A DNA stretch of 64,000 nt from Sphingomonadales bacterium (GTDB lineage: Bacteria > Pseudomonadota > Alphaproteobacteria > Sphingomonadales > Sphingomonadaceae), in contig JANNWX010000099.1 of NCBI GenBank assembly GCA_031409315.1, forward strand, positions 3,254 to 67,253. The letters are read 5' to 3'. The position numbers were made by a program, and so were the translations under genes. A model generated the notes under the pieces. The model saw nothing but the letters and a program-made list of their open reading frames with translations, did not search any database and was not told the origin of the DNA. Shown one piece after another: positions 4,526-58,619 of the stretch. How positions within the stretch are numbered: position 1 is the first letter of the stretch; each line of letters begins with the position of its first letter.

Positions 4526-5059
4526 TCAGTTGGAATTTTTGAGCGGCATCGGGTCTTCACCGTTCAAAACGCGATGCAGGGCGGACCGCGCGTCATCATC
4601 GGAGAGGAAAAACAGCTTTGAATAGATCGGCCCCAGCAACACGTTTCCCGCGCACAATGTCGATCCCAGCTTCTTTTCCAGGGCGTAGCCGTCCGGTTTT
4701 AGATGGACCGCCCAGCCAGCAATGCAGTGCGACGTTCCGCAACCTTTGCTCTTATCGTGCCAGAAATTCATGTTCAGATTGCCCGGTTCCTTCAGCACCG
4801 CTTGCGCTATCGCGACCAGCCGCGCATTTGCGGTTTCGGGATCGGGAACCGGGGAACCCCCGATGCTGGTGAGCGCCGGAAGGTCGCACGTCGCGCCTGA
4901 TCTGACGTCGAGGAAACCCCCGATGCTGGTGAGCGCCGGAAGGTCGCACGTCGCGCCTTCGTTGACGTAGAGGGAACCCCCGATGCTGGTGACCGCCGTC
5001 GCATCGTCGCCCGTCACCAGAGTAAGATTACCAACTATCTTTCCTGTGTATGAATTCAC
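4526..5059 (-). CDS. Phage protein with LRR-like tandem repeats (GATCDLPALTSIGG)
   Basis: GTG start at 5059 preceded by GGGAGA. It contains 2.3 copies of a 20-aa repeat encoded by a 60-bp DNA tandem repeat. The C-terminal half has a Cys/His-containing domain of unknown function. Confidence 0.55.
   Translation of the reverse strand: MNSYTGKIVGNLTLVTGDDATAVTSIGGSLYVNEGATCDLPALTSIGGFLDVRSGATCDLPALTSIGGSPVPDPETANARLVAIAQAVLKEPGNLNMNFWHDKSKGCGTSHCIAGWAVHLKPDGYALEKKLGSTLCAGNVLLGPIYSKLFFLSDDDARSALHRVLNGEDPMPLKNSN
4853..4998. repeat. 60-bp tandem direct repeat, about 2.3 units, inside a CDS
   Basis: aacccccgatgctggtgagcgccggaaggtcgcacgtcgcgcc is identical in units 1 and 2, offset by exactly 60 bp. 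Unit 3 is partial. Confidence 0.9.
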
Positions 5060-22014: not shown

Positions 22015-22888
22015 GGTTTCTATTCGTTTCGCCATGCCTGACGAACGCCTGCGGCCTTATCTTTCCACTTATTGGGAGATGGAAGTCAGCGGCGAGGGTG
22101 TGGTTGAAGATATGCTGCACCCGGAATGGGCCAATATCCGGATGACTTTGGATACACCTTGGGGATTTGCATCTTCCTTTGACCAGCTTGGTCAGCTTGA
22201 CGGCCACGCGATCATCCACGGCCCTACCAGCAAGCCAACATTCGTGCGGGGCTATGCCGGGCGAGCCTTTGGTGTCGGGATATTACCGCCGGGTTGGAAC
22301 CGGTTCTGGAAGGCAGATGCCAGCACATTTGCCGATCGGTTTCCGCCGCTTTCGGAATTGATGGGCGATGAAGCTGCAGAATTTGAAAGCCTGTTACTGT
22401 CAGCGCCAGATTTCGAAGCGCGCGCGGAGCGGACCAATGCCTTCATGCTGACGCTGCTTGGCAGATCCCGTAAATCGCGCTTCGATGATCAAGTGACAGC
22501 TTTTTTCCAAGTATTGACTGATCCGGCCAGTGCAACGGTAGAACAGATTACATCAACGCTTGGGCTGCCCCAATCCCGCCTCGCTCGACTCTCAAAGCGC
22601 GGCTTTGGATTCCCACCCAAAACACTGCTTAGTCGCCAGAGGTTCTTGCGCATGCTCGGCACGCTGCATGCCAGGCCCTACGGCGAATGGGCCGATTTCC
22701 TTGACCCGCAATATGTCGATCAAAGCCATATGATTCGTGATTTTCAAAGATTTTTGGGCATGGCGCCAAGCCATTATTTTGCGTTAAATCGCCCAGTCCT
22801 GATGGCGGCAACCAAAGGGCGGGCGGCGGTTTTCGGCCAGCCGCTCCAGGGGCTGCACCTGCCCCAATCAACCCAATCGAAAGCCTGA
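22007..22888 (+). CDS. AraC-family transcriptional regulator (paralogue 1)
   Basis: C-terminal HTH FLDPQYVDQSHMIRDFQRFLGMAPSHYF. The N-terminal domain is shared with the neighbouring gene. Confidence 0.75.
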   Translation: MAEVSIRFAMPDERLRPYLSTYWEMEVSGEGVVEDMLHPEWANIRMTLDTPWGFASSFDQLGQLDGHAIIHGPTSKPTFVRGYAGRAFGVGILPPGWNRFWKADASTFADRFPPLSELMGDEAAEFESLLLSAPDFEARAERTNAFMLTLLGRSRKSRFDDQVTAFFQVLTDPASATVEQITSTLGLPQSRLARLSKRGFGFPPKTLLSRQRFLRMLGTLHARPYGEWADFLDPQYVDQSHMIRDFQRFLGMAPSHYFALNRPVLMAATKGRAAVFGQPLQGLHLPQSTQSKA

Positions 22889-22891
22889 GCC

Positions 22892-23743
22892 TTGACCGAA
22901 ATCCGTGTCCAATATGCATTTCCGACACCCGCCCTGTTCGATCATGTTGCGGTTTACATCGAACTGACTGTTATCGGCGGGATGGCCCAAGATATGTTGC
23001 CGCCGGACATGGCATCGCTGCAGTTTTCCTTGTCGGGCAAATGGTCAACTGGCGTTGATTCCAATGCGCTTACCGAATCGTCCGATCGCGCCACGCTCTA
23101 CGGCACGACGAGTCAGGGGCACTGGATTCGCGGGCAGGATGGCATTGGCTTTTGTGTCGGTCTGCACCCGCTGGCCTGGCCCACGATCCTCAACCGGAAA
23201 GCCGATCTGCACGTCGATAGGGCCTGTGACTTGCAAGATATTTGGGGAAAGGATGCGGATTTGTTTCTTTCGGGCCTTCAGCACTGCGCAGATTTTAAGT
23301 CGCGGGTGATTTTGGCGAATGATTTTTTTGTCGGTCGCCTCGGCAATTCCAAACGATCCCCCGCCGCGTCAGACATCATAGCGATCCGTCAGACACTTGC
23401 CGATCCAACATGCGCTGATGTTTCGTCAATGGCTAGGCGAATCGGCATGCCGCAGGTCAGGTTGGGTCGGTTGGCCAAAGCCCATTTCGGTTTTTCACCA
23501 AAAATGCTGATCCGGCGCGCTCGGTTTCGCCGGATGCTGCACCGGATTGACGCACATAGTTACACCAATTGGCCCAACTTTCTCGACCCGCAATATGTCG
23601 ACCAAAGCCACATGATCCGCGATTTTCAGGATTTTATGGGCATGGCACCAAGCCAATATATGGGGCTGGAACGACCCTTTGTTGCGGCAGCCTTTGCTGA
23701 ATTTCGGGCCATGATGGGGGGGCCGCCTTCCGACGGGTCTTGA
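22892..23743 (+). CDS. AraC-family transcriptional regulator (paralogue 2)
   Basis: The C-terminus is nearly identical to paralogue 1: FLDPQYVDQSHMIRDFQDFMGMAPSQY. Non-ATG start as given in the ORF track. Confidence 0.7.
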   Translation: MTEIRVQYAFPTPALFDHVAVYIELTVIGGMAQDMLPPDMASLQFSLSGKWSTGVDSNALTESSDRATLYGTTSQGHWIRGQDGIGFCVGLHPLAWPTILNRKADLHVDRACDLQDIWGKDADLFLSGLQHCADFKSRVILANDFFVGRLGNSKRSPAASDIIAIRQTLADPTCADVSSMARRIGMPQVRLGRLAKAHFGFSPKMLIRRARFRRMLHRIDAHSYTNWPNFLDPQYVDQSHMIRDFQDFMGMAPSQYMGLERPFVAAAFAEFRAMMGGPPSDGS

Positions 23744-23896
23744 CCCTAAGGCCTGATCAAATTTATCGCCCAAACGCTTGCAATTCGGCGAATCTCTGTC
23801 TAAGGGCCGCTGCTTCCGTACGATTGAAATACGACCGGTCTGGCTGAAAGGGCTGCCACGACAGGTTTGAAATCGTCGCTTTTGAAAGGTGATAAA

Positions 23897-24100
23897 ATGC
23901 CCAAACTGAAGACCAAGAGCGGTGTGAAGAAACGCTTCACGCTGACCGCTACCGGCAAGCTGAAACACGGCGTTGCTGGCAAGCGTCACCGGCTGATGAG
24001 CCACAATGCCAAGTATATCCGCCAAAATCGCGGCACCTCTGTCCTTTCTGACGCTGACACAGCGACGGTGAAGGCATGGGCGCCCTACGGCCTGAAATAG
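23897..24100 (+). CDS. rpmI: 50S ribosomal protein L35
   Basis: MPKLKTKSGVKKRFTLTATGKLKHGVAGKRH. Confidence 0.95.
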   Translation: MPKLKTKSGVKKRFTLTATGKLKHGVAGKRHRLMSHNAKYIRQNRGTSVLSDADTATVKAWAPYGLK

Positions 24101-24112
24101 GAGAGCGGGACT

Positions 24113-24502
24113 ATGGCACGCGTCAAACGGGGTGTTACCACCCACGCCAAACACAAAAATATCCTCGATCTTGCCAAGGGCTATCGCGGTCGTCGTAAAA
24201 ACACGATTCGCGTTGCACGTCAGGCGGTCGAAAAAGCCGGGCAATATGCTTACCGCGACCGCAAGGTGAAGAAACGGACCTTCCGGGGCCTGTGGATTCA
24301 GCGCATCAACGCTGCCGTGCGGATTGAAGGACTAACCTATGCATCGTTCATGCACGGGCTGAAATTGGCCGGTGTCGAACTCGACCGGAAGGTTCTGGCT
24401 GATATGGCGATGCACGAAGGCGAAACCTTTAGCACCATCATCGCGCAAGCTAAGCATGCCCTGAGCGGGGTCGAAGGGGCTGCCTTGCCCTCAGCGGCAT
24501 AG
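24113..24502 (+). CDS. rplT: 50S ribosomal protein L20
   Basis: [30 protein letters not shown]. Confidence 0.95.
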
Positions 24503-24526
24503 GCTCCCTTTCTCAAAATGCGCTAA

Positions 24527-24564
24527 GGGGCGTGGGCGGCACACTTGCCGTTCGCGCCCTTTTG
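24527..24564 (+). terminator. Rho-independent terminator after rplT
   Basis: GC-rich hairpin ggggcgtgggcggca-cac-ttgccgttcgcgccc followed by TTTT. Confidence 0.6.
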
Positions 24565-24571
24565 CATTCCC

Positions 24572-24595
24572 GTCATTCCTGCGAAGGCGGGAATC
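24572..24595 (+). repeat. Palindromic hairpin repeat, family C (gtcattcctgcgaaggcgggaatc)
   Basis: Self-complementary ttcc(t/c)gc-gaag-gcgggaa core. One of four copies in the window. Confidence 0.85.
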
Positions 24596-24624
24596 TAGGA
24601 ACACCCAAAATGGCTGAAGGATGA

Positions 24625-24981
24625 GTGAGTTTGAAGCAGCCGTGCGTCTATATGTTAGCGAGTCGAAAGCACGGGACACTTTATGCTGGTGTCACGTCGA
24701 ATTTGATCCAAAGACTGCATCAGCATCGGGAAAAGACAGTTTCTGGTTTCACTAATGATCATGATGTGACACGACTGGTTTGGTTCGAAATGCACGAAAC
24801 GATGGAAGCAGCAATCCAGCGCGAGAAGCGCATCAAAAAATGGAATAGGGATTGGAAAATTCGACTCATTGAGGAAGAAAACCCTGAATGGCTTGATTTG
24901 GGAACCAGCATCGGGTTTGAACCTTTGCCAGCGCCGGACAAAAAACCATTCCGTCATTCCCGCGAAGGCGGGAATCCATGA
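24625..24981 (+). CDS. GIY-YIG nuclease family protein (URI-domain, COG2827-type)
   Basis: VYMLASRKHGTLYAGVTSNLIQRLHQHRE...EAAIQREKRIKKWNR matches the small GIY-YIG family. The C-terminal [11 protein letters not shown] is encoded by hairpin repeat copy 2. GTG start. Confidence 0.8.
   Translation: MSLKQPCVYMLASRKHGTLYAGVTSNLIQRLHQHREKTVSGFTNDHDVTRLVWFEMHETMEAAIQREKRIKKWNRDWKIRLIEEENPEWLDLGTSIGFEPLPAPDKKPFRHSREGGNP
24953..24976 (+). repeat. Palindromic hairpin repeat, family C
   Basis: gtcattcccgcgaaggcgggaatc. It forms the 3' end of the GIY-YIG ORF. Confidence 0.85.
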
Positions 24982-25031
24982 ACTCCATGGTGGATAGTTT
25001 GATACTATGCTTGGCAAAGAACGTGTTCTTG

Positions 25032-25055
25032 GATTCCCGCCTTCGCGGGAATGAC
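25032..25055 (-). repeat. Palindromic hairpin repeat, family C (inverted copy)
   Basis: gattcccgccttcgcgggaatgac, the exact reverse complement of copy 2. It lies 11 nt upstream of the pheS ATG. Confidence 0.85.
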
Positions 25056-25066
25056 GGGGTAGGGAA

Positions 25067-26167
25067 ATGAGCGACAAAGACTGGCAAGATAATCTCACAG
25101 ACTACAAGACAAAATATCTTCCAAAAATCATCAACGCCCCGGATTTGGCCACGTTGGAGGCACTCCGGGTTGAGCTGCTTGGAAAAGGCGGCTGGATAAC
25201 GCTTATCCTCAAGACCTTGGGCAATATGTCGCAGGGGGATCGCCAATTCAAAGGCCCCTTGATCAACGGCCTGCGCGAAGATGTGTCGCAGGCACTCACC
25301 GCCCGGAAGGCTGTACTTGAAACCGCAGGGCTCAACGCCCGCCTCGCCACAGAGCGGCTGGACATGACCCTGCCTGCACCCGAATCGCCCTGCGGATCGG
25401 TCCACCCGGTCAGCCAGGTGATGGATGAACTGGCCGAAATCTTCGCTGACATGGGCTTTGCCGTCGCCGAAGGGCCGGAAATAGAGGATGATTGGCACAA
25501 TTTCTCTGCGCTCAACATTCCCGAAACGCATCCGGCGCGCGCGATGCATGATACATTCTACTTTCCGGATCAGATGGCTGTGGGCGGCAAGAAAATGCTG
25601 CTCCGCACCCACACGTCGCCCGTGCAGATCCGGACGATGATGACCGGGCAGCCGCCGATCCGCATCATCGCGCCGGGGCGGGTCTACCGTTCGGATAGCG
25701 ACGCGACCCACACGCCGATGTTTCACCAGATTGAGGGTCTGGTGATCGACAAGGGCATTCATCTGGGTCATCTGAAATGGACTTTGGAGACATTTCTGAA
25801 GGCTTTTTTCGAACGCGATGACGTGAACATCCGCATGCGGCCTAGCTATTTCCCCTTCACCGAGCCGAGTGCAGAGATCGACATCGGTTTTTCGGTCGTG
25901 AACGGCAAACGCGTCATTGGCGGAAACGATGGCTGGATGGAAGTGTTGGGCAGCGGTATGGTTCACCCCAAAGTCATCGCCAACTGCGGGCTGGACCCGA
26001 ATGAATATCAGGGCTTTGCTTTCGGCACCGGCGTCGATCGGCTCGCCATGCTTAAATACGGGATGGATGATTTGCGTGCCTTTTTCGACGGCGATCTGCG
26101 CTGGTTGAAACATTACGGCTTCGGTGCCCTCGACGTGCCCACGCTGAGCGGGGGGGTGTCGCCGTGA
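25067..26167 (+). CDS. pheS: Phenylalanine--tRNA ligase alpha subunit
   Basis: [11 protein letters not shown]...[12 protein letters not shown]...FTEPSAE class II aaRS motifs. Confidence 0.95.
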
Positions 26168-32949: not shown

Positions 32950-33863
32950 TGCTGCCATTCGCGCGGGTCACTATCATCGGTCTGGGTCTGATCGGCTCAT
33001 CGATTGCGCGCGCGATACGGGTGCATATGCCCACGGTTGCTTTGGCCGGGCATGATGCCGATCCACAGGTCAGGGAAGCCGCAAAAGCACTGAACCTTGT
33101 CGACGATGTTGCCGACACGGCGGGGGCCGCCGTCACCGACGCTGATTTCGTCATTCTCTGTGTTCCAGTCGGGGCAATGGGCATTGTCGCGGCTGAAATC
33201 CGGGATGACCTGCCGTTGGAAACGATAATCAGCGACGTTGGCTCCTCAAAAGCTGGCGTCATGTCGGCATTGCAGTCAGCATTGCCTGATCATGTGATCA
33301 TCCCCGCGCATCCGGTTGCTGGCACCGAACGCAGCGGCCCTGAGGCCGGTTTTGCCAGTCTGTTTCACAACCGCTGGTGCATAGTGACGCCGCCCGAAAC
33401 TGCTGATCCAGCCAAAGTCGCGCAGGTGCAGGCTTTTTGGGAGGCCTTGGGGGCCAATGTCGAAATCATGGATGCCGCGCACCATGATCTCATTCTCGCC
33501 ATCACCAGCCATTTGCCACATTTGATCGCCTATACGATTGTCGGCACCGCCTCTGATCTGGAAGCCGTGACCCGTTCAGAAGTGATCAAATATTCCGCGG
33601 GCGGATTTCGTGATTTCACCCGCATCGCGGCGTCGGACCCGACGATGTGGCGTGACGTGTTTTTGACCAACAAAGACGCCGTGCTGGAAATGCTCCAACG
33701 CTTTTCCGAAGACTTGAGCGCCCTGCAACGGGCGATCCGCTGGGGCGATGGCGATGCTTTGTTCGATCTGTTCACCCGCACCCGCGCCGTGCGTCGCTCA
33801 ATCATCGAACAGGGGCAGGATGATGACCGGCCCGATTTCGGACGTTCGGATCACGGTTCCTAG
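32949..33863 (+). CDS. Prephenate/arogenate dehydrogenase family protein
   Basis: VTIIGLGLIGSSIA Rossmann motif, HPVAGTE, and SHLPHLIAY. Confidence 0.85.
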   Translation: MLPFARVTIIGLGLIGSSIARAIRVHMPTVALAGHDADPQVREAAKALNLVDDVADTAGAAVTDADFVILCVPVGAMGIVAAEIRDDLPLETIISDVGSSKAGVMSALQSALPDHVIIPAHPVAGTERSGPEAGFASLFHNRWCIVTPPETADPAKVAQVQAFWEALGANVEIMDAAHHDLILAITSHLPHLIAYTIVGTASDLEAVTRSEVIKYSAGGFRDFTRIAASDPTMWRDVFLTNKDAVLEMLQRFSEDLSALQRAIRWGDGDALFDLFTRTRAVRRSIIEQGQDDDRPDFGRSDHGS

Positions 33864-33963
33864 AGTGTTTTTGAGTGAGGTGGAAACAGCGAACGGCCCG
33901 GAAAACACGGAAAACCAAGAAATTCTAGACTCTGTTTGATTCAATCTGAAACAAACAGAGTCT
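33862..33963 (+). repeat. About 100-bp double-hairpin intergenic repeat, family B, copy 1
   Basis: agagtgtttttgag...cccggaaaacac (hairpin 1) plus agactctgtttg-13nt-caaacagagtct (12-bp perfect stem). An inverted copy lies at 55810-55911. Confidence 0.85.
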
Positions 33964-34657
33964 CATTGAGGGCGTTGATGGCCTTGTGAACGCGCGGCTC
34001 CACCTCATCACGCGGCAAGCCTGGGGGGATCGGTGCGCCTACCTGCATCGTGACGATGCCCGATCGCTTGATAAAGGCACGCGGCCAGATTTTGCCCGAA
34101 TCGACTGCGACCGGAATCACCGTCAGCCCAAGAATTTTATAAAGCCCGGCAAAACCGGCGCGCAATTCGGGCTGTTCGCCGTGCGGCACCCGTGTGCCTT
34201 CCGGAAACAAGACAATCGGGCGGCCCGAATCCTTGGCAATTTTTGCCGCAGCGATCATCCGGCGCATAGCCGCGCCGCCGGCATCGCGGTCAACCGGGAT
34301 AACGCCTTGCGCCCGCGCCACATATCCCCAGCCAAACATGTCGACCAGTTCCCGCTTCATCACCACAACCGGCCGATCAAACAGCACCAAAGTTTCGATC
34401 GTTTCAAACATCGATTCATGCTTGAAAACATAAAGCGCCTGATCTTGGCTGATCTCGCCAATCACATTGACGCGGATACCCAGCAGGTGGCGTGCACACC
34501 ATCGGTGCCACAAGGCCCAATTCCGCGCACCGGCGATGACCGCATTCTGCCCAAATGGCACCGCGAGAATAGCGGCAGAAACCGTGATGACACTCCCGGG
34601 GTAGAAGATCATGTTGAACAGCAAGGATCGGACGAAGGCGGTCACTTCACAACCCAA
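33941..34657 (-). CDS. plsC: 1-acyl-sn-glycerol-3-phosphate acyltransferase family protein
   Basis: FKHESMFET (H-x4-E/D box) and FPEGTR motifs. The last 7 codons lie within repeat B1. Confidence 0.8.
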   Translation of the reverse strand: MGCEVTAFVRSLLFNMIFYPGSVITVSAAILAVPFGQNAVIAGARNWALWHRWCARHLLGIRVNVIGEISQDQALYVFKHESMFETIETLVLFDRPVVVMKRELVDMFGWGYVARAQGVIPVDRDAGGAAMRRMIAAAKIAKDSGRPIVLFPEGTRVPHGEQPELRAGFAGLYKILGLTVIPVAVDSGKIWPRAFIKRSGIVTMQVGAPIPPGLPRDEVEPRVHKAINALNETLFVSD

Positions 34658-38110: not shown

Positions 38111-38197
38111 GCGGCCGTGGCGGAACTGGTAGACGCGCAACGTTGAGGTCGTTGTGGGCGAAAGCCCGTGGAAGTTCGAGTCTTCTCGGCCGCACCA
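38111..38197 (+). tRNA. tRNA-Leu (anticodon GAG), CCA encoded
   Basis: GCGGCCGTGGCGGAACTGGTAGACGCG...CAACGTTGAGGTCGTTG...long variable arm...CGGCCGCACCA. The 7-bp acceptor stem was checked. Confidence 0.95.
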
Positions 38198-38243
38198 AAT
38201 TTCAAATTGTCGATCATATCCCGCCCATGCGGGGCTTTCGGCT

Positions 38244-38344
38244 AGAGTGATTTCGAGTTAAATGGAACATTTAACGGCTCGGAAATCACAGTAAAACAAT
38301 AGCTTAGGCCCTCATTTTGATTCGATAAAAATGGAACAGGGTCT
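38244..38344 (+). repeat. About 100-bp double-hairpin intergenic repeat, family A, copy 1
   Basis: Near-identical to 50615-50715. gtgatttcgag-TTAAATG-gaa-CATTTAA-cgg-ctcggaaatcac hairpin plus a cattttgattcgataaaaatg hairpin. Confidence 0.9.
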
Positions 38345-50013: not shown

Positions 50014-50616
50014 ATGACAATGAAATCAAAGACGAAGGCGGCGATTGCCGGGCTGGTTTTTGCAGCGCTGGTTCCCGGTGCTGCGGTGGGCCAGTTTTCC
50101 GAAAGCTATAATTTCCTGAAGGCTGTGCGCGACCGTGACGGCACCAAAGCGACTGAGATTATCACTAAGCCCGGATCGATCATCATCGACACCCGCGAAC
50201 AAGGAAGCGGTGAAGCCGCCATCCATATCGTCACCAAGCGGCGCGACATTGCGTGGATGGGCTTTTTGCTGTCACGCGGCGCACGCCCCGATGTGCGCGA
50301 CGGGACAGGCAATACGGCCCTCAACCTCGCGGCGCAAATCGGGTTTACCGAAGGCGCAACGCAATTATTGAAATTCCGTGCGTCGGTTGATCTGGCGAAT
50401 AACAGCGGCGAAACCCCGTTGATCCGGGCGGTGCAGGCCCGCGACATTGCAATGGCCAGATTGTTGCTTGCGGCCGGGGCCAATCCGGCAAAGACCGACA
50501 GGATCGCGGGGATGTCAGCCCGTGACTATGCCGTCCGCGATGCCCGGGCAAAAGCAATTCTGCTGCTGATCAACGAAGTGAAGCCGGTCAAAGCCGTCGC
50601 CGGCCCCAAGCCATAG
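50014..50616 (+). CDS. Ankyrin-repeat protein with signal peptide
   Basis: Repeats such as GEAAIHIVTKRRDIAWMGFLLSRGARPDVRD, GNTALNLAAQIG and GETPLIRAVQARD. N-terminal signal AALVPGAAVG. Confidence 0.75.
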   Translation: MTMKSKTKAAIAGLVFAALVPGAAVGQFSESYNFLKAVRDRDGTKATEIITKPGSIIIDTREQGSGEAAIHIVTKRRDIAWMGFLLSRGARPDVRDGTGNTALNLAAQIGFTEGATQLLKFRASVDLANNSGETPLIRAVQARDIAMARLLLAAGANPAKTDRIAGMSARDYAVRDARAKAILLLINEVKPVKAVAGPKP

Positions 50617-50715
50617 AGTGATTTCGAGTTAAATGGGACATTTAACGGCTCGGAAATCACAGTAAAACAAGAGTTTAGACACCCATTTTGATTCAATCAA
50701 AATGGACCAGGGTCT
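50615..50715 (+). repeat. About 100-bp double-hairpin intergenic repeat, family A, copy 2
   Basis: Near-identical to 38244-38344. Contains the perfect palindrome ccattttgattcaatcaaaatgg. Confidence 0.9.
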
Positions 50716-50742
50716 CGCCCTGATGACCGATCAGATTATAGG

Positions 50743-53007: not shown

Positions 53008-54087
53008 ATGCCCTGTCTTTTTGATCCCATCACGCTAGGAGCGATCGAAGCGCCCAACCGTATTTTTATGTCACCCCTGACCCGTGGGCGCAGTGTGGGA
53101 GCCAATGTTCCCGTCACCGCGCTTAAGGCGGATTATTATGCCCAGCGCGCGAGCGCGGGCCTGATCATAGCCGAGGCCACCGGGATCACGCCTGAGGGTT
53201 CGGGCTGGCCGTCAGCACCCGGTATCTGGTCTGCCGAGCAGGTTGAGGCATGGAAGCCCGTGACCGGGGCGGTGCATAAGGCCGGTGGGCGCATCATCCT
53301 GCAACTCTGGCATATGGGCCGGTTGGTCCATTCGGATTTTCTGGGTGGGGCACAGCCAGTGTCGGCGTCGGCCACCACTGCGCCGGGCTTTGCCCATACT
53401 GCCGAGGGCAAGAAAGCTTATGTCGAGGCCCGCCCATTGCGGCTCCATGAAATACCGCGCTTGATCGGCGATTATGTTCACGCTGCAAAAAATGCGATGG
53501 CCGCCGGATTTGACGGGGTTCAGGTGCACGGTGCCAATGGCTATCTGATCGACCAGTTCCTGCGCGATAACAGCAATTTCCGCGATGATGCATACGGCGG
53601 GCCGATTGAAAACCGCATCCGGTTGATGACAGAAGTTGTGCAGGCGGTTGCCGATGCGGTTGGTGCGGACCGGACCAGCATTCGCCTGTCCCCCAACGGC
53701 GAAACTCAAGGTGCGGACGATTCGAAACCGGTCGCCTTGTTCTCAGCAGCAGCAGCAGCGCTCGACAAGATTGGCATCGGCTTTCTGGAATTGCGCGAAC
53801 AAAAGACGTTTGGCAGTTTTGGAACCAGCGAAGTGCCCCGTGTATCGCCCGACATCCGCAAACTATTTAATGGCCCGCTGGTGCTCAATCAGGAATATAC
53901 TGCGCAAACCGCCGCTGACGACCTCGCAAGCGGGCTTGCCGACGCGATCAGTTTCGGGCGCCCGTTTATCTCCAATCCCGATCTGCCGCGCCGTTTGCGT
54001 GACGGGATTGCCTTGACGCCGGACAATTATAAAACGTGGTATTCGCCGGGGCCGGAGGGATATACGGATTATCCCGTTGCGGATTGA
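53008..54087 (+). CDS. Old Yellow Enzyme family NADH:flavin oxidoreductase (NemA-like)
   Basis: PNRIFMSPLTRGR, LIIAEAT, QLWHMGR, HGANGYLIDQFL, FGRPFISNPDLP. Confidence 0.9.
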   Translation: MPCLFDPITLGAIEAPNRIFMSPLTRGRSVGANVPVTALKADYYAQRASAGLIIAEATGITPEGSGWPSAPGIWSAEQVEAWKPVTGAVHKAGGRIILQLWHMGRLVHSDFLGGAQPVSASATTAPGFAHTAEGKKAYVEARPLRLHEIPRLIGDYVHAAKNAMAAGFDGVQVHGANGYLIDQFLRDNSNFRDDAYGGPIENRIRLMTEVVQAVADAVGADRTSIRLSPNGETQGADDSKPVALFSAAAAALDKIGIGFLELREQKTFGSFGTSEVPRVSPDIRKLFNGPLVLNQEYTAQTAADDLASGLADAISFGRPFISNPDLPRRLRDGIALTPDNYKTWYSPGPEGYTDYPVAD

Positions 54088-54095
54088 ACGACGAC

Positions 54096-54128
54096 GAATC
54101 ATCCCGGCGAAGGTCGGGATGACGATTC
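54096..54128. repeat. Solitary palindromic hairpin related to family C
   Basis: gaatcatcccggcgaaggtcgggatgacgattc has the same catYcccgNc-gaag-gNcgggRatg architecture as the repeats around the GIY-YIG gene. It lies between convergent genes. Confidence 0.6.
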
Positions 54129-55278: not shown

Positions 55279-55811
55279 TACACGAACCAGCGGCAGAATT
55301 TTCCCGGCCAATCCGGCTCGACGCAATTGGCACAGAGGCTGCGGCGCATATTATTGCCGCCAACCCAGGCGAGTGTGCGGCGCTGGCGGCGCGGTTCGGG
55401 CTGGAAAATATCGGCAAACTTGAGGCCGAACTGCGGCTTGTCCACACGGCGCCCGATCATATCGCGCAGGGCCATTTGGCCGCGCGCGTGACACAGGTTT
55501 GCGTCGCGACCGGTGATCTGTTGCCCGTCACCCTCAACGTGCCATTCCGTATTCGCTTCACGCCGCCAGACGCATCTGCGGGTGACGAGGAGGCGGAGCT
55601 AAGCGCCGAGGATGGCGACGTGATGGATCATGACGGGCAACAGATCGACATTGGCGAGGCAGTTGCCCAGACCCTGTTGCTCGCGCTGGATCCGTTTCCG
55701 CGCAGCCCAAATGCCGACACCCGTCTAAAGGCGGCCGGGGTGGTAAGCGAAGCCGATGTGCGGTCGTTTTCGGCACTCCAGACGCTTAAGGAGCGGCTGA
55801 CAAGGCCCTAG
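55275..55811 (+). CDS. YceD/DUF177 family protein
   Basis: Typical position and an acidic C-terminal half (DIGEAVAQTLLLALDPFPR). Confidence 0.7.
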   Translation: MIHEPAAEFSRPIRLDAIGTEAAAHIIAANPGECAALAARFGLENIGKLEAELRLVHTAPDHIAQGHLAARVTQVCVATGDLLPVTLNVPFRIRFTPPDASAGDEEAELSAEDGDVMDHDGQQIDIGEAVAQTLLLALDPFPRSPNADTRLKAAGVVSEADVRSFSALQTLKERLTRP

Positions 55812-55911
55812 ACTCTGTTTGTTTCTGATTGTTTCAGACAGAGTCTAGAATTTCTAGGTTTTCCGCGTTTTCCGAGCCATTCGGTGTATCCACCTCACTC
55901 GAAAACACTCT
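55810..55911 (-). repeat. About 100-bp double-hairpin intergenic repeat, family B, copy 2 (inverted relative to copy 1)
   Basis: agactctgt...acagagtct hairpin and gttttccgagcc...ctcgaaaacac hairpin. Bounded by TA on both sides. Confidence 0.85.
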
Positions 55912-56395
55912 AAAAGGGAACGTCGTCGTCGAGATCGCTATCAAATGGGCCTGACCCAGCAGATTTGCCACCACCAAAATTGCTGGCCCCGGCATCTCCG
56001 CCCCAGTCGCGCGATGCAGCGCCGCCGCCTGAACCGCCGCCATCACGGCTGCCCAGCAGAACCAGTTCGCCGCGGAACCGTTGCAACACGATTTCGGTCG
56101 TATAGCGATCAGCGCCGCCCTGATCGGTCCATTTGCGGGTCTGCACCTGTCCTTCGAGATAAACGCTGGAGCCTTTGCGCAGATATTGTTTGGCAACCCG
56201 CCCAAGATTTTCGTTGAAAATCACGACATTGTGCCACTCGGTCTTTTCCTTGCGGTCACCCGACGCCTTGTCGGTCCAGTTTTCCGATGTCGCCACCGAA
56301 AAACTGACGACTTCGCCGCCATTGTTCATGCTTCTCGCTTCGGGATCTTTGCCCAAATTTCCGACCAGAATGACCTTGTTGACGCTCCCCGCCAT
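55910..56395 (-). CDS. ssb: Single-stranded DNA-binding protein
   Basis: [19 protein letters not shown]...TEWHNVVIF...Gly-rich tail...DDDVPF. Confidence 0.95.
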
Positions 56396-58558: not shown

Positions 58559-58619
58559 TGCTAGGCCCTGAATGCTGGACCCTGCCCCATTTTGAGTGAA
58601 TCAAAATGAAACAGGGTTC
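58559..58619 (+). repeat. Partial copy of family A repeat (second-hairpin module only)
   Basis: taggccct...ccccattttgagtgaatcaaaatgaaacagggt aligns with the 3' halves of 38244-38344 and 50615-50715. Confidence 0.7.

Follow-up and report, generated by a model that had tools for sequence, protein, structure and literature searches.

The stretch of DNA analysed here, referred to as the window, spans 64 kb in total and carries, between rplT and pheS, a small gene for a GIY-YIG nuclease accompanied by hairpin-forming repeats. The rplT stop codon lies at 24500-24502 and is followed by a strong stem at about 24525-24561 with a UUUUGCAUU tail, after which the first repeat begins at 24569; the last repeat arm ends at 25058, leaving 8 nt before the pheS ATG at 25067, just as the initial annotation of this DNA had placed it. 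A 118-aa open reading frame (24625-24981) is surrounded by three copies of CGTCATTCC(C/T)GCGAAGGCGGGAAT, two on the plus strand and one on the minus strand, and the features of the locus, with gene and repeats under their published names, are as follows:

24525 to 24568, plus strand: intrinsic terminator or attenuator hairpin of rplT with its U-tract, marking the left boundary of the insertion
24571 to 24598 (extended repeat 24569 to 24604), plus strand: NTS/SRM copy 1, upstream of ssn, one mismatch to the NTS consensus, ssDNA fold of -7.8 kcal/mol
24625 to 24981, plus strand: ssn, 118 aa from GTG 24625, homologue of single-domain GIY-YIG site-specific ssDNA endonucleases
24952 to 24979, plus strand: NTS/SRM copy 2, assigned by the NTS consensus, overlapping the 3' end of ssn and serving as left arm in the REPIN-like pair below
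25029 to 25056 (extended arm 25023 to 25058), minus strand: NTS/SRM copy 3, inverted, its arm ending 8 nt before the pheS ATG (25067)
24951 to 25057, no strand assigned: REPIN-like head-to-head pair (copy 2, a 41-nt spacer and copy 3), supported by its 33-nt arms, its fold and its alignment with the relative L087

An RNA fold of 24503-24605, which takes in the rplT terminator, gives -50 kcal/mol (z -5.1), and this terminator element is conserved in all relatives compared, including one with an empty site (L089). Rfam returned nothing above noise for the region or for the whole window, and a promoter/terminator consensus scan found no match in the cassette, though it also missed the obvious rplT terminator. 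The GC fraction is 0.43-0.46 inside the cassette against 0.56-0.60 in its flanks (0.476 for the ORF and 0.588 for the whole window), in agreement with the AT-richer interior remarked on earlier.

Each repeat unit is the palindrome it had been taken for, with an 8-bp stem (ATTCCCGC/GCGGGAAT) and a 4-nt GAAG loop, and single units folded as ssDNA reach -7.8 to -8.9 kcal/mol (z -2.5 to -3.3). Copies 2 and 3 read CGTC-ATTCCCGC-GAAG-GCGGGAAT-CCA, and copy 1 has the stem ATTCCTGC and the tail CTA. The 24-mer CGTCATTCCCGCGAAGGCGGGAAT occurs at 24571-24594 (plus strand, one mismatch), 24952-24975 (plus strand, no mismatch) and 25033-25056 (minus strand, no mismatch); apart from these three cassette copies there is none in the 64-kb window, nor did any appear in 100 dinucleotide-preserving shuffles of it. 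The inverted repeat first reported at 24569-24595 and 25032-25058 with one mismatch has exactly these coordinates, the mismatch being a T/C difference, and its similarity extends to outer arms of 36 nt (24569-24604 and 25023-25058, 92%). Copies 2 and 3, with 41 nt between them, make up an inverted pair of 33-nt arms, 97% complementary, which folds into one long ssDNA hairpin (-45.8 kcal/mol, z -10.5). As the initial annotation had also recognised, the second, direct copy at 24952-24979 encodes the C-terminal residues of the ORF (..RHSREGGNP, about 9 codons), and its tail provides the TGA stop at 24979-24981.

A further hairpin, at 54096-54128, had been listed as a related orphan copy, but it is a different palindrome on the minus strand, CGTC-ATCCCGAC-CTTC-GCCGGGAT-G, which lacks the C just after the stem. 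Its fold is unexceptional (z -1.4, with 23 of 200 shuffles as good), and we rejected it as a dispersed copy; the window consequently yields no evidence of dispersal in the source genome.

The ORF product matches Pfam PF01541 (GIY-YIG) with an E-value of 1.9e-16 over residues 6-79 of 118, which upholds its original assignment. This was the sole domain found; the protein had no match in NCBIfam or PHROGs, and a single marginal PADLOC match (35 residues, E about 1e-3) was disregarded. A TTG in the same frame at 24631, preceded by GAAGGA at a distance of 9 nt, is as likely a start as GTG 24625. The database gene call (P0001, 109 aa) begins at ATG 24652 and is probably mis-started, since it would delete the first catalytic Tyr.

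As a reference for SsnA we used the 94-aa orthologue of N. gonorrhoeae (L055:4998-5279), standing in for NMV_0044 of N. meningitidis, whose published length and Y6/Y17/E64 positions it matches; the gonococcal orthologue sits inside a cluster of 12 NTS copies. The window protein aligns to it by BLASTP with 60% identity over 92 aa, without gaps and with an E-value of 8e-43, the threshold for homology within the Ssn family being E < 1e-10. Its Y9, Y20 and E67 fall opposite Y6, Y17 and E64, mutation of which abolishes cleavage in N. meningitidis SsnA, and these catalytic residues are invariant in our alignment (A1; core positions Y5, Y16 and E63). An AlphaFold model of the 95-aa core has a pLDDT of 94.6, and its best fold matches in the PDB are all GIY-YIG proteins (UPF0213, Slx1, HIGLE, UvrC-N and, distantly at E 3, I-TevI). 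The protein is a small, single-domain GIY-YIG nuclease homologue with no extra DNA-binding domain, and its C-terminal tail of about 17 aa is partly encoded by the repeat. With dN/dS values of 0.06-0.46 among syntenic orthologues, ssn evolves under purifying selection.

The Ssn family of site-specific ssDNA nucleases (CDD model cd10448, GIY-YIG_unchar_3) was first described in 2025 (Chenal et al., Nat Commun 16:2388, PMC11893778). SsnA binds the NTS hairpin as ssDNA only and cuts just upstream of it, a few nt 5', and the characterised Ssn enzymes are strand- and orientation-dependent, being inactive on dsDNA, RNA and the reverse strand (PMC11893778). Activity was shown for four homologues (from N. 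meningitidis, N. elongata, N. wadsworthii and Wolbachia pipientis), homologues bind the hairpin directly with nanomolar affinity, and natural NTS copies differ in cleavage efficiency (PMC11893778). The same study reports that ssn genes across phyla are flanked by NTS/SRM-type repeats, that Ssn restricts transformation by NTS-bearing DNA in Neisseria, and that Sphingomonas is among the SRM-rich genera (PMC11893778).

Each of the three cassette copies matches the NTS consensus, CGTCATTCCCGCGMAVGCGGGAATCYRG, with one mismatch, which is within the search criterion of Chenal et al. (at most one mismatch; PMC11893778), and no match is expected by chance. Copy 1 carries a C to T substitution in the stem that still allows a G-T pair, and the G at the end of the consensus is T or A in copies 2 and 3. 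Of the three copies, only the middle one fits the SRM regular expression of the same authors, as transcribed here; as this expression is strict at stem and tail positions, the NTS consensus (at most one mismatch) and the structural definition were used instead.

The units equally resemble the CGTC-1 REPs, including dRS3 of Neisseria, described by Di Nocera, De Gregorio and Rocco (BMC Genomics 2013, PMC3733652): they have an unpaired CGTC tag, an 8-bp stem starting with AT, a 4-nt loop and a CCA-type tail of about 3 nt, they form head-to-head dimers, and they lie in a sphingomonad, a group included in the Alphaproteobacteria where this class predominates. CGTC REPs occur in tens to thousands of dispersed copies per genome (PMC3733652); in the 64-kb window there are three, all at ssn. 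Judged by its sequence and predicted fold, the cassette repeat is both the CGTC-1 REP of Di Nocera 2013 and the NTS of Chenal et al. 2025. The two literatures thus deal with the same DNA element without cross-reference, and the link between them is implicit. The 2013 study found no dedicated transposase for CGTC REPs, having examined annotated transposases alone, and its intragenic survey excluded repeats inside hypothetical ORFs under 120 aa (PMC3733652); the 2025 study supplies a protein that binds and cuts the element, without citing the earlier work (PMC11893778). A literature search for GIY-YIG linked with REP, REPIN, RAYT or MITE found nothing relevant, and the papers checked that cite Di Nocera 2013 do not mention GIY-YIG. 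Ssn answers the question left open in 2013 about a dedicated protein.

We conclude that the cassette is very probably an Ssn/SRM unit, comprising a gene for a single-domain GIY-YIG nuclease of about 95 residues, ssn, and three cognate hairpins (NTS, or CGTC-1 REPs). The initial annotation had proposed that nuclease and hairpins form one self-contained unit, comparable to a RAYT/REP pair though with a GIY-YIG enzyme at its core, and this is supported, the pairing having been shown for the family (PMC11893778) and the testable family traits being present here. Its statement that no mechanism was defined is out of date, given the ssDNA hairpin binding and the cleavage a few nt 5' reported since (PMC11893778). 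As this nuclease-hairpin pairing is already known and published, the main value of the present result lies in annotating the locus correctly: ssn is the appropriate name for the ORF, whose start should be set at 24625 or 24631 in place of the 109-aa call, and the three repeats should be entered as NTS/SRM copies (CGTC-1 REPs).

With the published family (PMC11893778) the unit shares protein type and size, the Tyr/Tyr/Glu residues, the identity to the Neisseria orthologue, repeats within one mismatch of NTS, and the NTS-ssn-NTS layout, in which the copy before the gene is forward and the one after it inverted. It differs in having no NTS outside the cassette in 64 kb, where pathogenic Neisseria have hundreds of copies (PMC11893778), and in the fusion of one NTS to the 3' end of the ORF, which creates a clade-specific protein tail. 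The fixed place in the rpmI-rplT-pheST operon and the allelic series set out below are not described in that paper.

By analogy with its homologues, the window protein would have the same activity on the cassette repeats. Homology to the Neisseria and Wolbachia enzymes predicts that it binds the folded hairpin only in single-stranded DNA, which arises at replication forks, in repair gaps and as an intermediate of transformation or conjugation, and that recognition would depend on three features: the sequence of the stem, the CGTC tag on its 5' side and the C immediately 3' of it. The same strand would then be hydrolysed a few nt 5' of the tag, with Mg2+ and a Tyr/Tyr/Glu active site. The numbering used in the published work (20-nt product, tag G26, post-stem C49) suggests a distance of about 4 nt. 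Three cuts are predicted: on the plus strand left of 24571, on the plus strand left of 24952, which falls within the 3' end of ssn itself, and on the minus strand right of 25056; the two outermost would thus mark the outer limits of the cassette, one on each strand. We infer these cut positions, as well as the cellular role in a sphingomonad, from the characterised enzymes. Because the insertion lies within the rpmI-rplT-pheST operon, past the rplT terminator, expression of ssn probably depends on read-through. Since the cassette accounts for every NTS in the 64-kb window, the genome may be repeat-poor, and restriction of NTS-bearing incoming DNA as in Neisseria may not apply. The organism is not known to be naturally competent.

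At rplT-pheS we compared 12 PheS-bearing contigs. Relatives whose PheS is 81-85% identical either have an empty spacer of 76 bp or carry a repeat pair but no ssn, and the cassette is therefore a real insertion at this site, as had been proposed. Four states of the site were observed: it is empty in L089, holds a solo pair of the same class in L087 and one of another class in L086 and L088 (stem ATGCTGAA, 5-nt loop), and carries pair and ssn together in the window, L002, L003 and L005. What L087 carries is the downstream pair unit (as at 24951-25057) alone; in some Sphingomonas (L006, L012 and L042) the pair lies upstream of ssn and not downstream. While synonymous sites are saturated among the syntenic ssn orthologues, the 28-mers on either side of the gene show little or no difference, which indicates constraint on the repeats. 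Ssn identity correlates weakly with PheS/PheT identity (Pearson 0.42, Spearman 0.27, the pairs not being independent), and the protein clusters weakly by repeat class, a pattern that is confounded with taxonomy.

Co-localisation of hairpin and GIY-YIG gene, put forward in the initial annotation as a check, was assessed over 83 ssn homologue loci from many phyla by searching for GTC-tagged hairpins. A forward hairpin lies within 250 bp upstream in 80% of these loci, an inverted one within 300 bp downstream in 83%, and both in 67%. In agreement with the published association, tagged hairpins are 24-fold denser near ssn than further away (4.25 against 0.177 per kb), and the stems on both sides of the gene match in 45 of 56 loci, though the stem differs between loci. 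The flanking hairpins are retained in the 73 of 83 loci that lie outside rplT-pheS. In 82 of 83 loci the gene has a higher AT content than its flanks, and its GC follows that of the host (r = 0.85), so that low GC is a trait of the whole ssn family; we rejected it as a sign of recent import.

In layout the unit also recalls the RAYT/REP/REPIN systems (Nunvar 2010; Bertels & Rainey 2011; Ton-Hoang 2012), in which a small gene is flanked by inverted hairpins that its product recognises: the two have in common an unpaired tetranucleotide tag 5' of the stem, ssDNA recognition and cleavage, inverted pairs and long-term residence in the chromosome. The tag is CGTC in the Ssn system and GTAG in RAYT/REP, and Ssn is a hydrolytic GIY-YIG enzyme, not an HUH Y1 transposase of IS200/IS605 type, with neither covalent intermediate nor strand transfer; the cassette therefore resembles a REPtron without being one. 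The "peel-and-paste" TnpA of IS200/IS605 likewise recognises subterminal hairpins as ssDNA and cleaves a few nt from them, but its catalytic fold differs and both of its ends lie on the same strand, whereas the inverted hairpins of the cassette would place the cuts on opposite strands.

These likenesses bear on a reading that would add to the Ssn/SRM explanation, namely that Ssn is a functional counterpart of the RAYTs, responsible for spreading CGTC-tagged REPs and REPIN-like pairs, and that NTS-ssn-NTS is, or descends from, an autonomous IS-like element moving via ssDNA hairpin intermediates. We regard this as possible but on balance doubtful. It would account for the inverted cognate hairpins on both sides of ssn with predicted cuts at the outer edges, for the four states of one chromosomal site and for the pair upstream of ssn in L006, L012 and L042. 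In the distal flanks of ssn loci, moreover, tagged hairpins still number about 0.18 per kb, compared with about 0.03 per kb for non-NTS matches in the window, and family members from Proteobacteria, Chloroflexota, Planctomycetota, Myxococcota and candidate phyla are 58-72% identical, a level that implies horizontal spread. An IS-like architecture and its domestication were raised as a hypothesis by Chenal et al. (PMC11893778), and the restriction of the 2013 survey to annotated transposases, with hypothetical ORFs under 120 aa skipped (PMC3733652), also speaks for it. On the other side, GIY-YIG nucleases hydrolyse DNA with no covalent intermediate and so cannot rejoin strands as HUH Y1 transposases do, which leaves a ligation or copy-choice step missing, and the flanking sites lie on opposite strands, unlike those of IS200/IS605. 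Alignment with relatives reveals neither a target-site duplication nor a clean excision junction, the solo pair of L087 is equally explained by deletion between the direct NTS copies, 381 bp apart, and no dispersed copies occur within the 64-kb window. Synteny of ssn at rplT-pheS across several genera, with dS saturated, points to long residence rather than recent movement. We offer, as a tentative suggestion, that the enzyme so far missing for mobilisation of the CGTC-tagged REP superfamily is Ssn, which would act as a hydrolytic GIY-YIG equivalent of the RAYTs and spread single hairpins and inverted pairs by way of ssDNA, aided by host repair or replication. Neither Di Nocera 2013 nor Chenal 2025 addressed whether Ssn spreads repeats, and the allelic series at rplT-pheS in Sphingomonadaceae bears on whether it creates, moves or deletes them; were it a mobilising enzyme, this spacer would be a natural record of events (empty, solo class A, solo class B, and pair with ssn).

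Far less probable is that the protein is a dsDNA homing nuclease of the I-TevI kind, with the rplT-pheS spacer as its target and the ability to copy itself into alleles that lack it, and that the hairpins are incidental. GIY-YIG is a classic homing-endonuclease fold, and the same spacer is occupied in several sphingomonad genera and empty in close relatives. The protein, however, has no second, DNA-binding domain beyond its catalytic core of about 95 aa, and characterised members of the family leave dsDNA uncut (PMC11893778). Most homologues (the 73 of 83 loci mentioned above) sit at unrelated sites and keep their hairpins, which co-vary with the gene and not with the site, and the dS saturation among syntenic copies argues against recent homing. 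Stand-alone and modular GIY-YIG proteins in general (the UPF0213/YhbQ-like BH0048 and EF2693, Slx1, the UvrC N-domain and I-TevI) share fold and catalytic core with Ssn and include its best fold and sequence matches in the PDB, but they act on dsDNA, branched or damaged DNA, mostly with the help of extra domains or partners, and none is tied to a flanking hairpin repeat.

Least probable of all, and refuted as a sole explanation by the association statistics, is that ordinary REP-type RNA elements (terminators, mRNA stabilisers or a pheS 5'-UTR structure) lie beside an unrelated repair-type nuclease: REPs are often found just downstream of ORFs and are thought to be RNA elements (Di Nocera 2013, PMC3733652), and the downstream pair would give a highly stable stem whose end lies 8 nt ahead of the pheS start, with GACGGGG where a ribosome-binding site is expected, but the 24-fold enrichment of hairpins at ssn across phyla with matching paired stems, the location of all three NTS copies of the window at ssn and the direct, nanomolar binding of the hairpin by homologues (PMC11893778) stand against it. 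A secondary, RNA-level effect on pheS could coexist with the Ssn/SRM unit; the GACGGGG junction, followed after 3-9 nt by the pheS start, is conserved in L002, L005, L020, L025, L086 and L087.

The cassette lies between rplT and pheS, and its surroundings are organised as follows (window coordinates).

23867-24100: rpmI, upstream of rplT
24113-24502: rplT, upstream of the cassette
~24525-24568: strong terminator-like stem and U-tract, directly after rplT
24569-25058: cassette, its right end 8 nt before the pheS ATG
24571 (+): 24-mer CGTCATTCCCGCGAAGGCGGGAAT, copy 1, one mismatch
24625-24981: ssn, the 118-aa ORF, single GIY-YIG domain (Pfam E 1.9e-16)
24952 (+): 24-mer, copy 2 (middle)
25033-25056 (-): 24-mer, copy 3
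25067: pheS ATG
from 26164: pheT

The initial annotation had described three repeats, inverted arms, a GIY-YIG ORF, a drop in GC and this very position, all of which were borne out. Beyond these three, no copy of CGTCATTCCCGCGAAGGCGGGAAT was found in the 64 kb, with none expected by chance, and the outer inverted arms proved longer (36 nt) than the similarity first noted. Downstream, two of the copies pair over 33 nt (97% complementary, 41-nt spacer) and fold as ssDNA into one long hairpin (-45.8 kcal/mol, z -10.5), and the middle copy supplies the final nine codons and the stop of ssn. GC inside the cassette falls to 0.43-0.46, and the RNA fold of 24503-24605 reaches -50 kcal/mol (z -5.1).

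A literature search on the CDD label of the family led to Chenal et al. (Nat Commun 2025, PMC11893778), who described the Ssn site-specific ssDNA nucleases. SsnA of N. meningitidis, a 94-aa protein with one GIY-YIG domain assigned to cd10448, binds the hairpin repeat NTS (CGTCATTCCCGCGMAVGCGGGAATCYRG) as ssDNA only (Kd ~4.5 nM) and cuts the same strand a few nucleotides upstream of it, leaving dsDNA, RNA and the reverse strand uncut; cleavage is lost in Y6A, Y17A and E64A (PMC11893778). An ungapped alignment of the window protein with the N. gonorrhoeae orthologue (94 aa) gave 60% identity over 92 residues (E 8e-43); that orthologue has Y6, Y17 and E64 and is surrounded by 12 NTS copies, and the window residues at the aligned catalytic positions are Y9, Y20 and E67. 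The AlphaFold model of the core was confident (pLDDT 94.6), and its best PDB matches were GIY-YIG domains (UPF0213, Slx1, HIGLE, UvrC-N and I-TevI); a search of the PDB for an Ssn structure found none. The database call for the ORF (public protein cluster P0001, 109 aa) starts at ATG 24652, which cuts off the first catalytic Tyr. ATG 24621 is out of frame, and the true start is likely one of the in-frame codons, GTG 24625 or TTG 24631, the latter with GAAGGA 9 nt upstream.

Each of the three window repeats differs from the NTS consensus at one position, which is as much as Chenal et al. tolerated, and no NTS was found outside the cassette within the 64-kb window. The repeat unit combines a CGTC tag and a CCA tail with an 8-bp stem (first bases AT) and a loop of 4 nt, the sequence features that define the CGTC-1 REP family, to which the Neisseria dRS3 repeat also belongs (Di Nocera et al. 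2013, PMC3733652). The transposase check in that study covered annotated transposase genes only, and its intragenic-repeat survey excluded repeats inside hypothetical ORFs <120 aa (PMC3733652); Chenal et al. neither cite Di Nocera 2013 nor mention rplT or pheS (PMC11893778). The initial reading of this feature was correct and the feature is real; the literature already describes it. One of the two things still useful is the link between the CGTC-REP and Ssn literatures, the other the allelic series at rplT-pheS described below.

The hairpin at 54096-54128, initially taken as a related hairpin suggesting dispersal, differs in stem and loop orientation and lacks the C that follows the stem, the base that matters most for binding (PMC11893778), and its fold is no better than shuffles (z -1.4); not an NTS copy and unremarkably folded, it is not evidence of dispersal. 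The hairpin is imperfect and CGTC-tagged (CGTC-ATCCCGAC-CTTC-GCCGGGAT-G on the minus strand) and begins 8 nt past a TGA stop (54086-54088), a REP-like position.

A homology search with the window protein returned 3,680 relatives, many of which bear repeat-derived peptides at one end (e.g. VIPAKAGIH, or GC-richer variants such as RHPRAGGDP), indicating that the gene-repeat association is general. When one genome per species was scanned with a core alignment, at least 590 loci emerged; the 80 kept (58-72% identity) came from Alpha-, Beta-, Gamma-, Delta- and Zetaproteobacteria, Chloroflexota, Planctomycetota, Myxococcota and candidate phyla. Defining hairpins by structure alone (GTC tag, perfect stem of ≥7 bp, loop of 4-5 nt) and counting over 83 distinct loci, we found a forward hairpin within 250 bp upstream of ssn in 66, an inverted one within 300 bp downstream in 69 and hairpins on both sides in 56, with a density of 4.25 per kb near the gene versus 0.177 per kb further away. 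Stems vary among loci (e.g. ATTCCCGC, ATTCCGGC, ATTCCAGC, ATTCCTGC and GTTCCCGC, or ATGCTGAA and ACCCTGAA with a 5-nt loop), and upstream and downstream stems of the same locus agree in 45/56. Chenal et al. reported at least one SRM, the degenerate form of the repeat, at 71% of homologue loci and on both sides at 42%, found Ssn encoded by 81% of genomes with >200 SRMs, and listed Sphingomonas among SRM-rich genera (PMC11893778). Tandem ssn copies, or a copy and a fragment, each with their own hairpins, occur within ~900 bp in some genomes (L031 1116-2243, L074 5001-5879 and L013 5001-5591).

The low GC of ssn is a family property and uninformative on recent acquisition: ssn is AT-richer than its flanks in 82/83 loci (mean -9 points), and across loci its GC tracks host GC (r = 0.85).

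PheS places the window in Sphingomonadaceae, with Chakrabartia as the nearest named genus (81-85% identity). The order rplT-ssn-pheS is shared by the closest Ssn relatives (contigs L002, 79%, and L003 and L005, ~71%) and by Sphingomonas sp. Leaf32, S. citri, S. aurea and two Sphingobium. Some equally close relatives have no ssn there, their spacers being as follows.

L089, 2425-2500: 76 bp, terminator only (empty)
L087, 2385-2500: terminator, then a solo inverted NTS pair, no ssn
L086 and L088 (Chakrabartia godavariana), 2380-2500: inverted pair from another CGTC-REP class (5-nt loop, ATGCTGAA stem)

The gene is thus absent from some relatives and an empty site exists, contrary to the outcome that would have refuted the initial reading; the site is polymorphic. 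The L087 structure is what would be expected from deletion between the window's two direct NTS copies (381 bp apart), though independent insertion of a pair would look identical. An inverted pair lies upstream of ssn in L003, L006, L012 and L042, and in every occupied allele the right end reads GACGGG(G), with 2-9 nt left before the pheS start codon. Between syntenic orthologues synonymous sites are saturated and dN/dS is 0.06-0.46 where estimable: ssn is an old gene subject to purifying selection. The flanking 28-mers stay essentially identical among these loci, which indicates constraint on the repeats. Divergence of Ssn and of PheS/PheT showed weak congruence (r = 0.42).

Ssn would most likely recognise the flanking hairpins once these are extruded in ssDNA, and would then nick that strand slightly to the 5' side of the CGTC tag, at a distance of a few nucleotides. 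The numbering in PMC11893778 (20-nt product, tag G26, post-stem C49) suggests an offset of ~4 nt; the predicted cuts are then near 24566/24567 and 24947/24948 on the plus strand and immediately right of 25056 on the minus strand. SsnA reduces the transformation of Neisseria by DNA that carries NTS, and the NTS-ssnA-NTS layout was called IS-like and compared with IS200/IS605 and REP-associated transposases, with domestication proposed (PMC11893778). Candidate roles in a sphingomonad are those considered in Neisseria: restraining the recombination of incoming ssDNA that bears NTS, and a part in generating or maintaining the repeats. Mobilisation of the repeats by Ssn in the manner of a REP-associated tyrosine transposase (RAYT) is made attractive by the allelic series at rplT-pheS, but it would have to proceed without rejoining chemistry, the flanking sites occupy opposite strands and there is no visible junction signature, so we regard it as rather unlikely. 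The series itself offers a test bed for the question of repeat mobility.

The window also holds other repeats. Just upstream of rpmI, a 116-nt direct repeat (22679-22794 and 23561-23676, 76% identity) spans a 283-aa ORF (22892-23743), copy one lying upstream of the ORF and copy two inside its 3' part; among relatives, the gene upstream of rpmI encodes a TonB-dependent receptor, MFS transporter, inositol monophosphatase or GGDEF protein. At 4852-4998, a 60-nt unit (GGGAACCCCCGATGCTGGTGAGCGCCGGAAGGTCGCACGTCGCGCC...) is present in ~2.5 tandem copies (90-96% identity). A second, unrelated dispersed repeat of ~105 nt (consensus TAGAGTGnTTTCGAGTGA..AACGGCTCGGAAA.CAC..CAAGA..) has five copies.

33861-33964 (+)
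38243-38345 (+), begins 46 nt past tRNA-Leu (38111-38197)
50614-50716 (+)
55808-55912 (-)
58559-58619 (-), partial

The stem of its terminal hairpin depends on the copy (GACTCTGTTTG/CAAACAGAGTC versus CCCATTTTGA/TCAAAATGG). It had no match in Rfam and may represent either a MITE-like or a small-RNA repeat.
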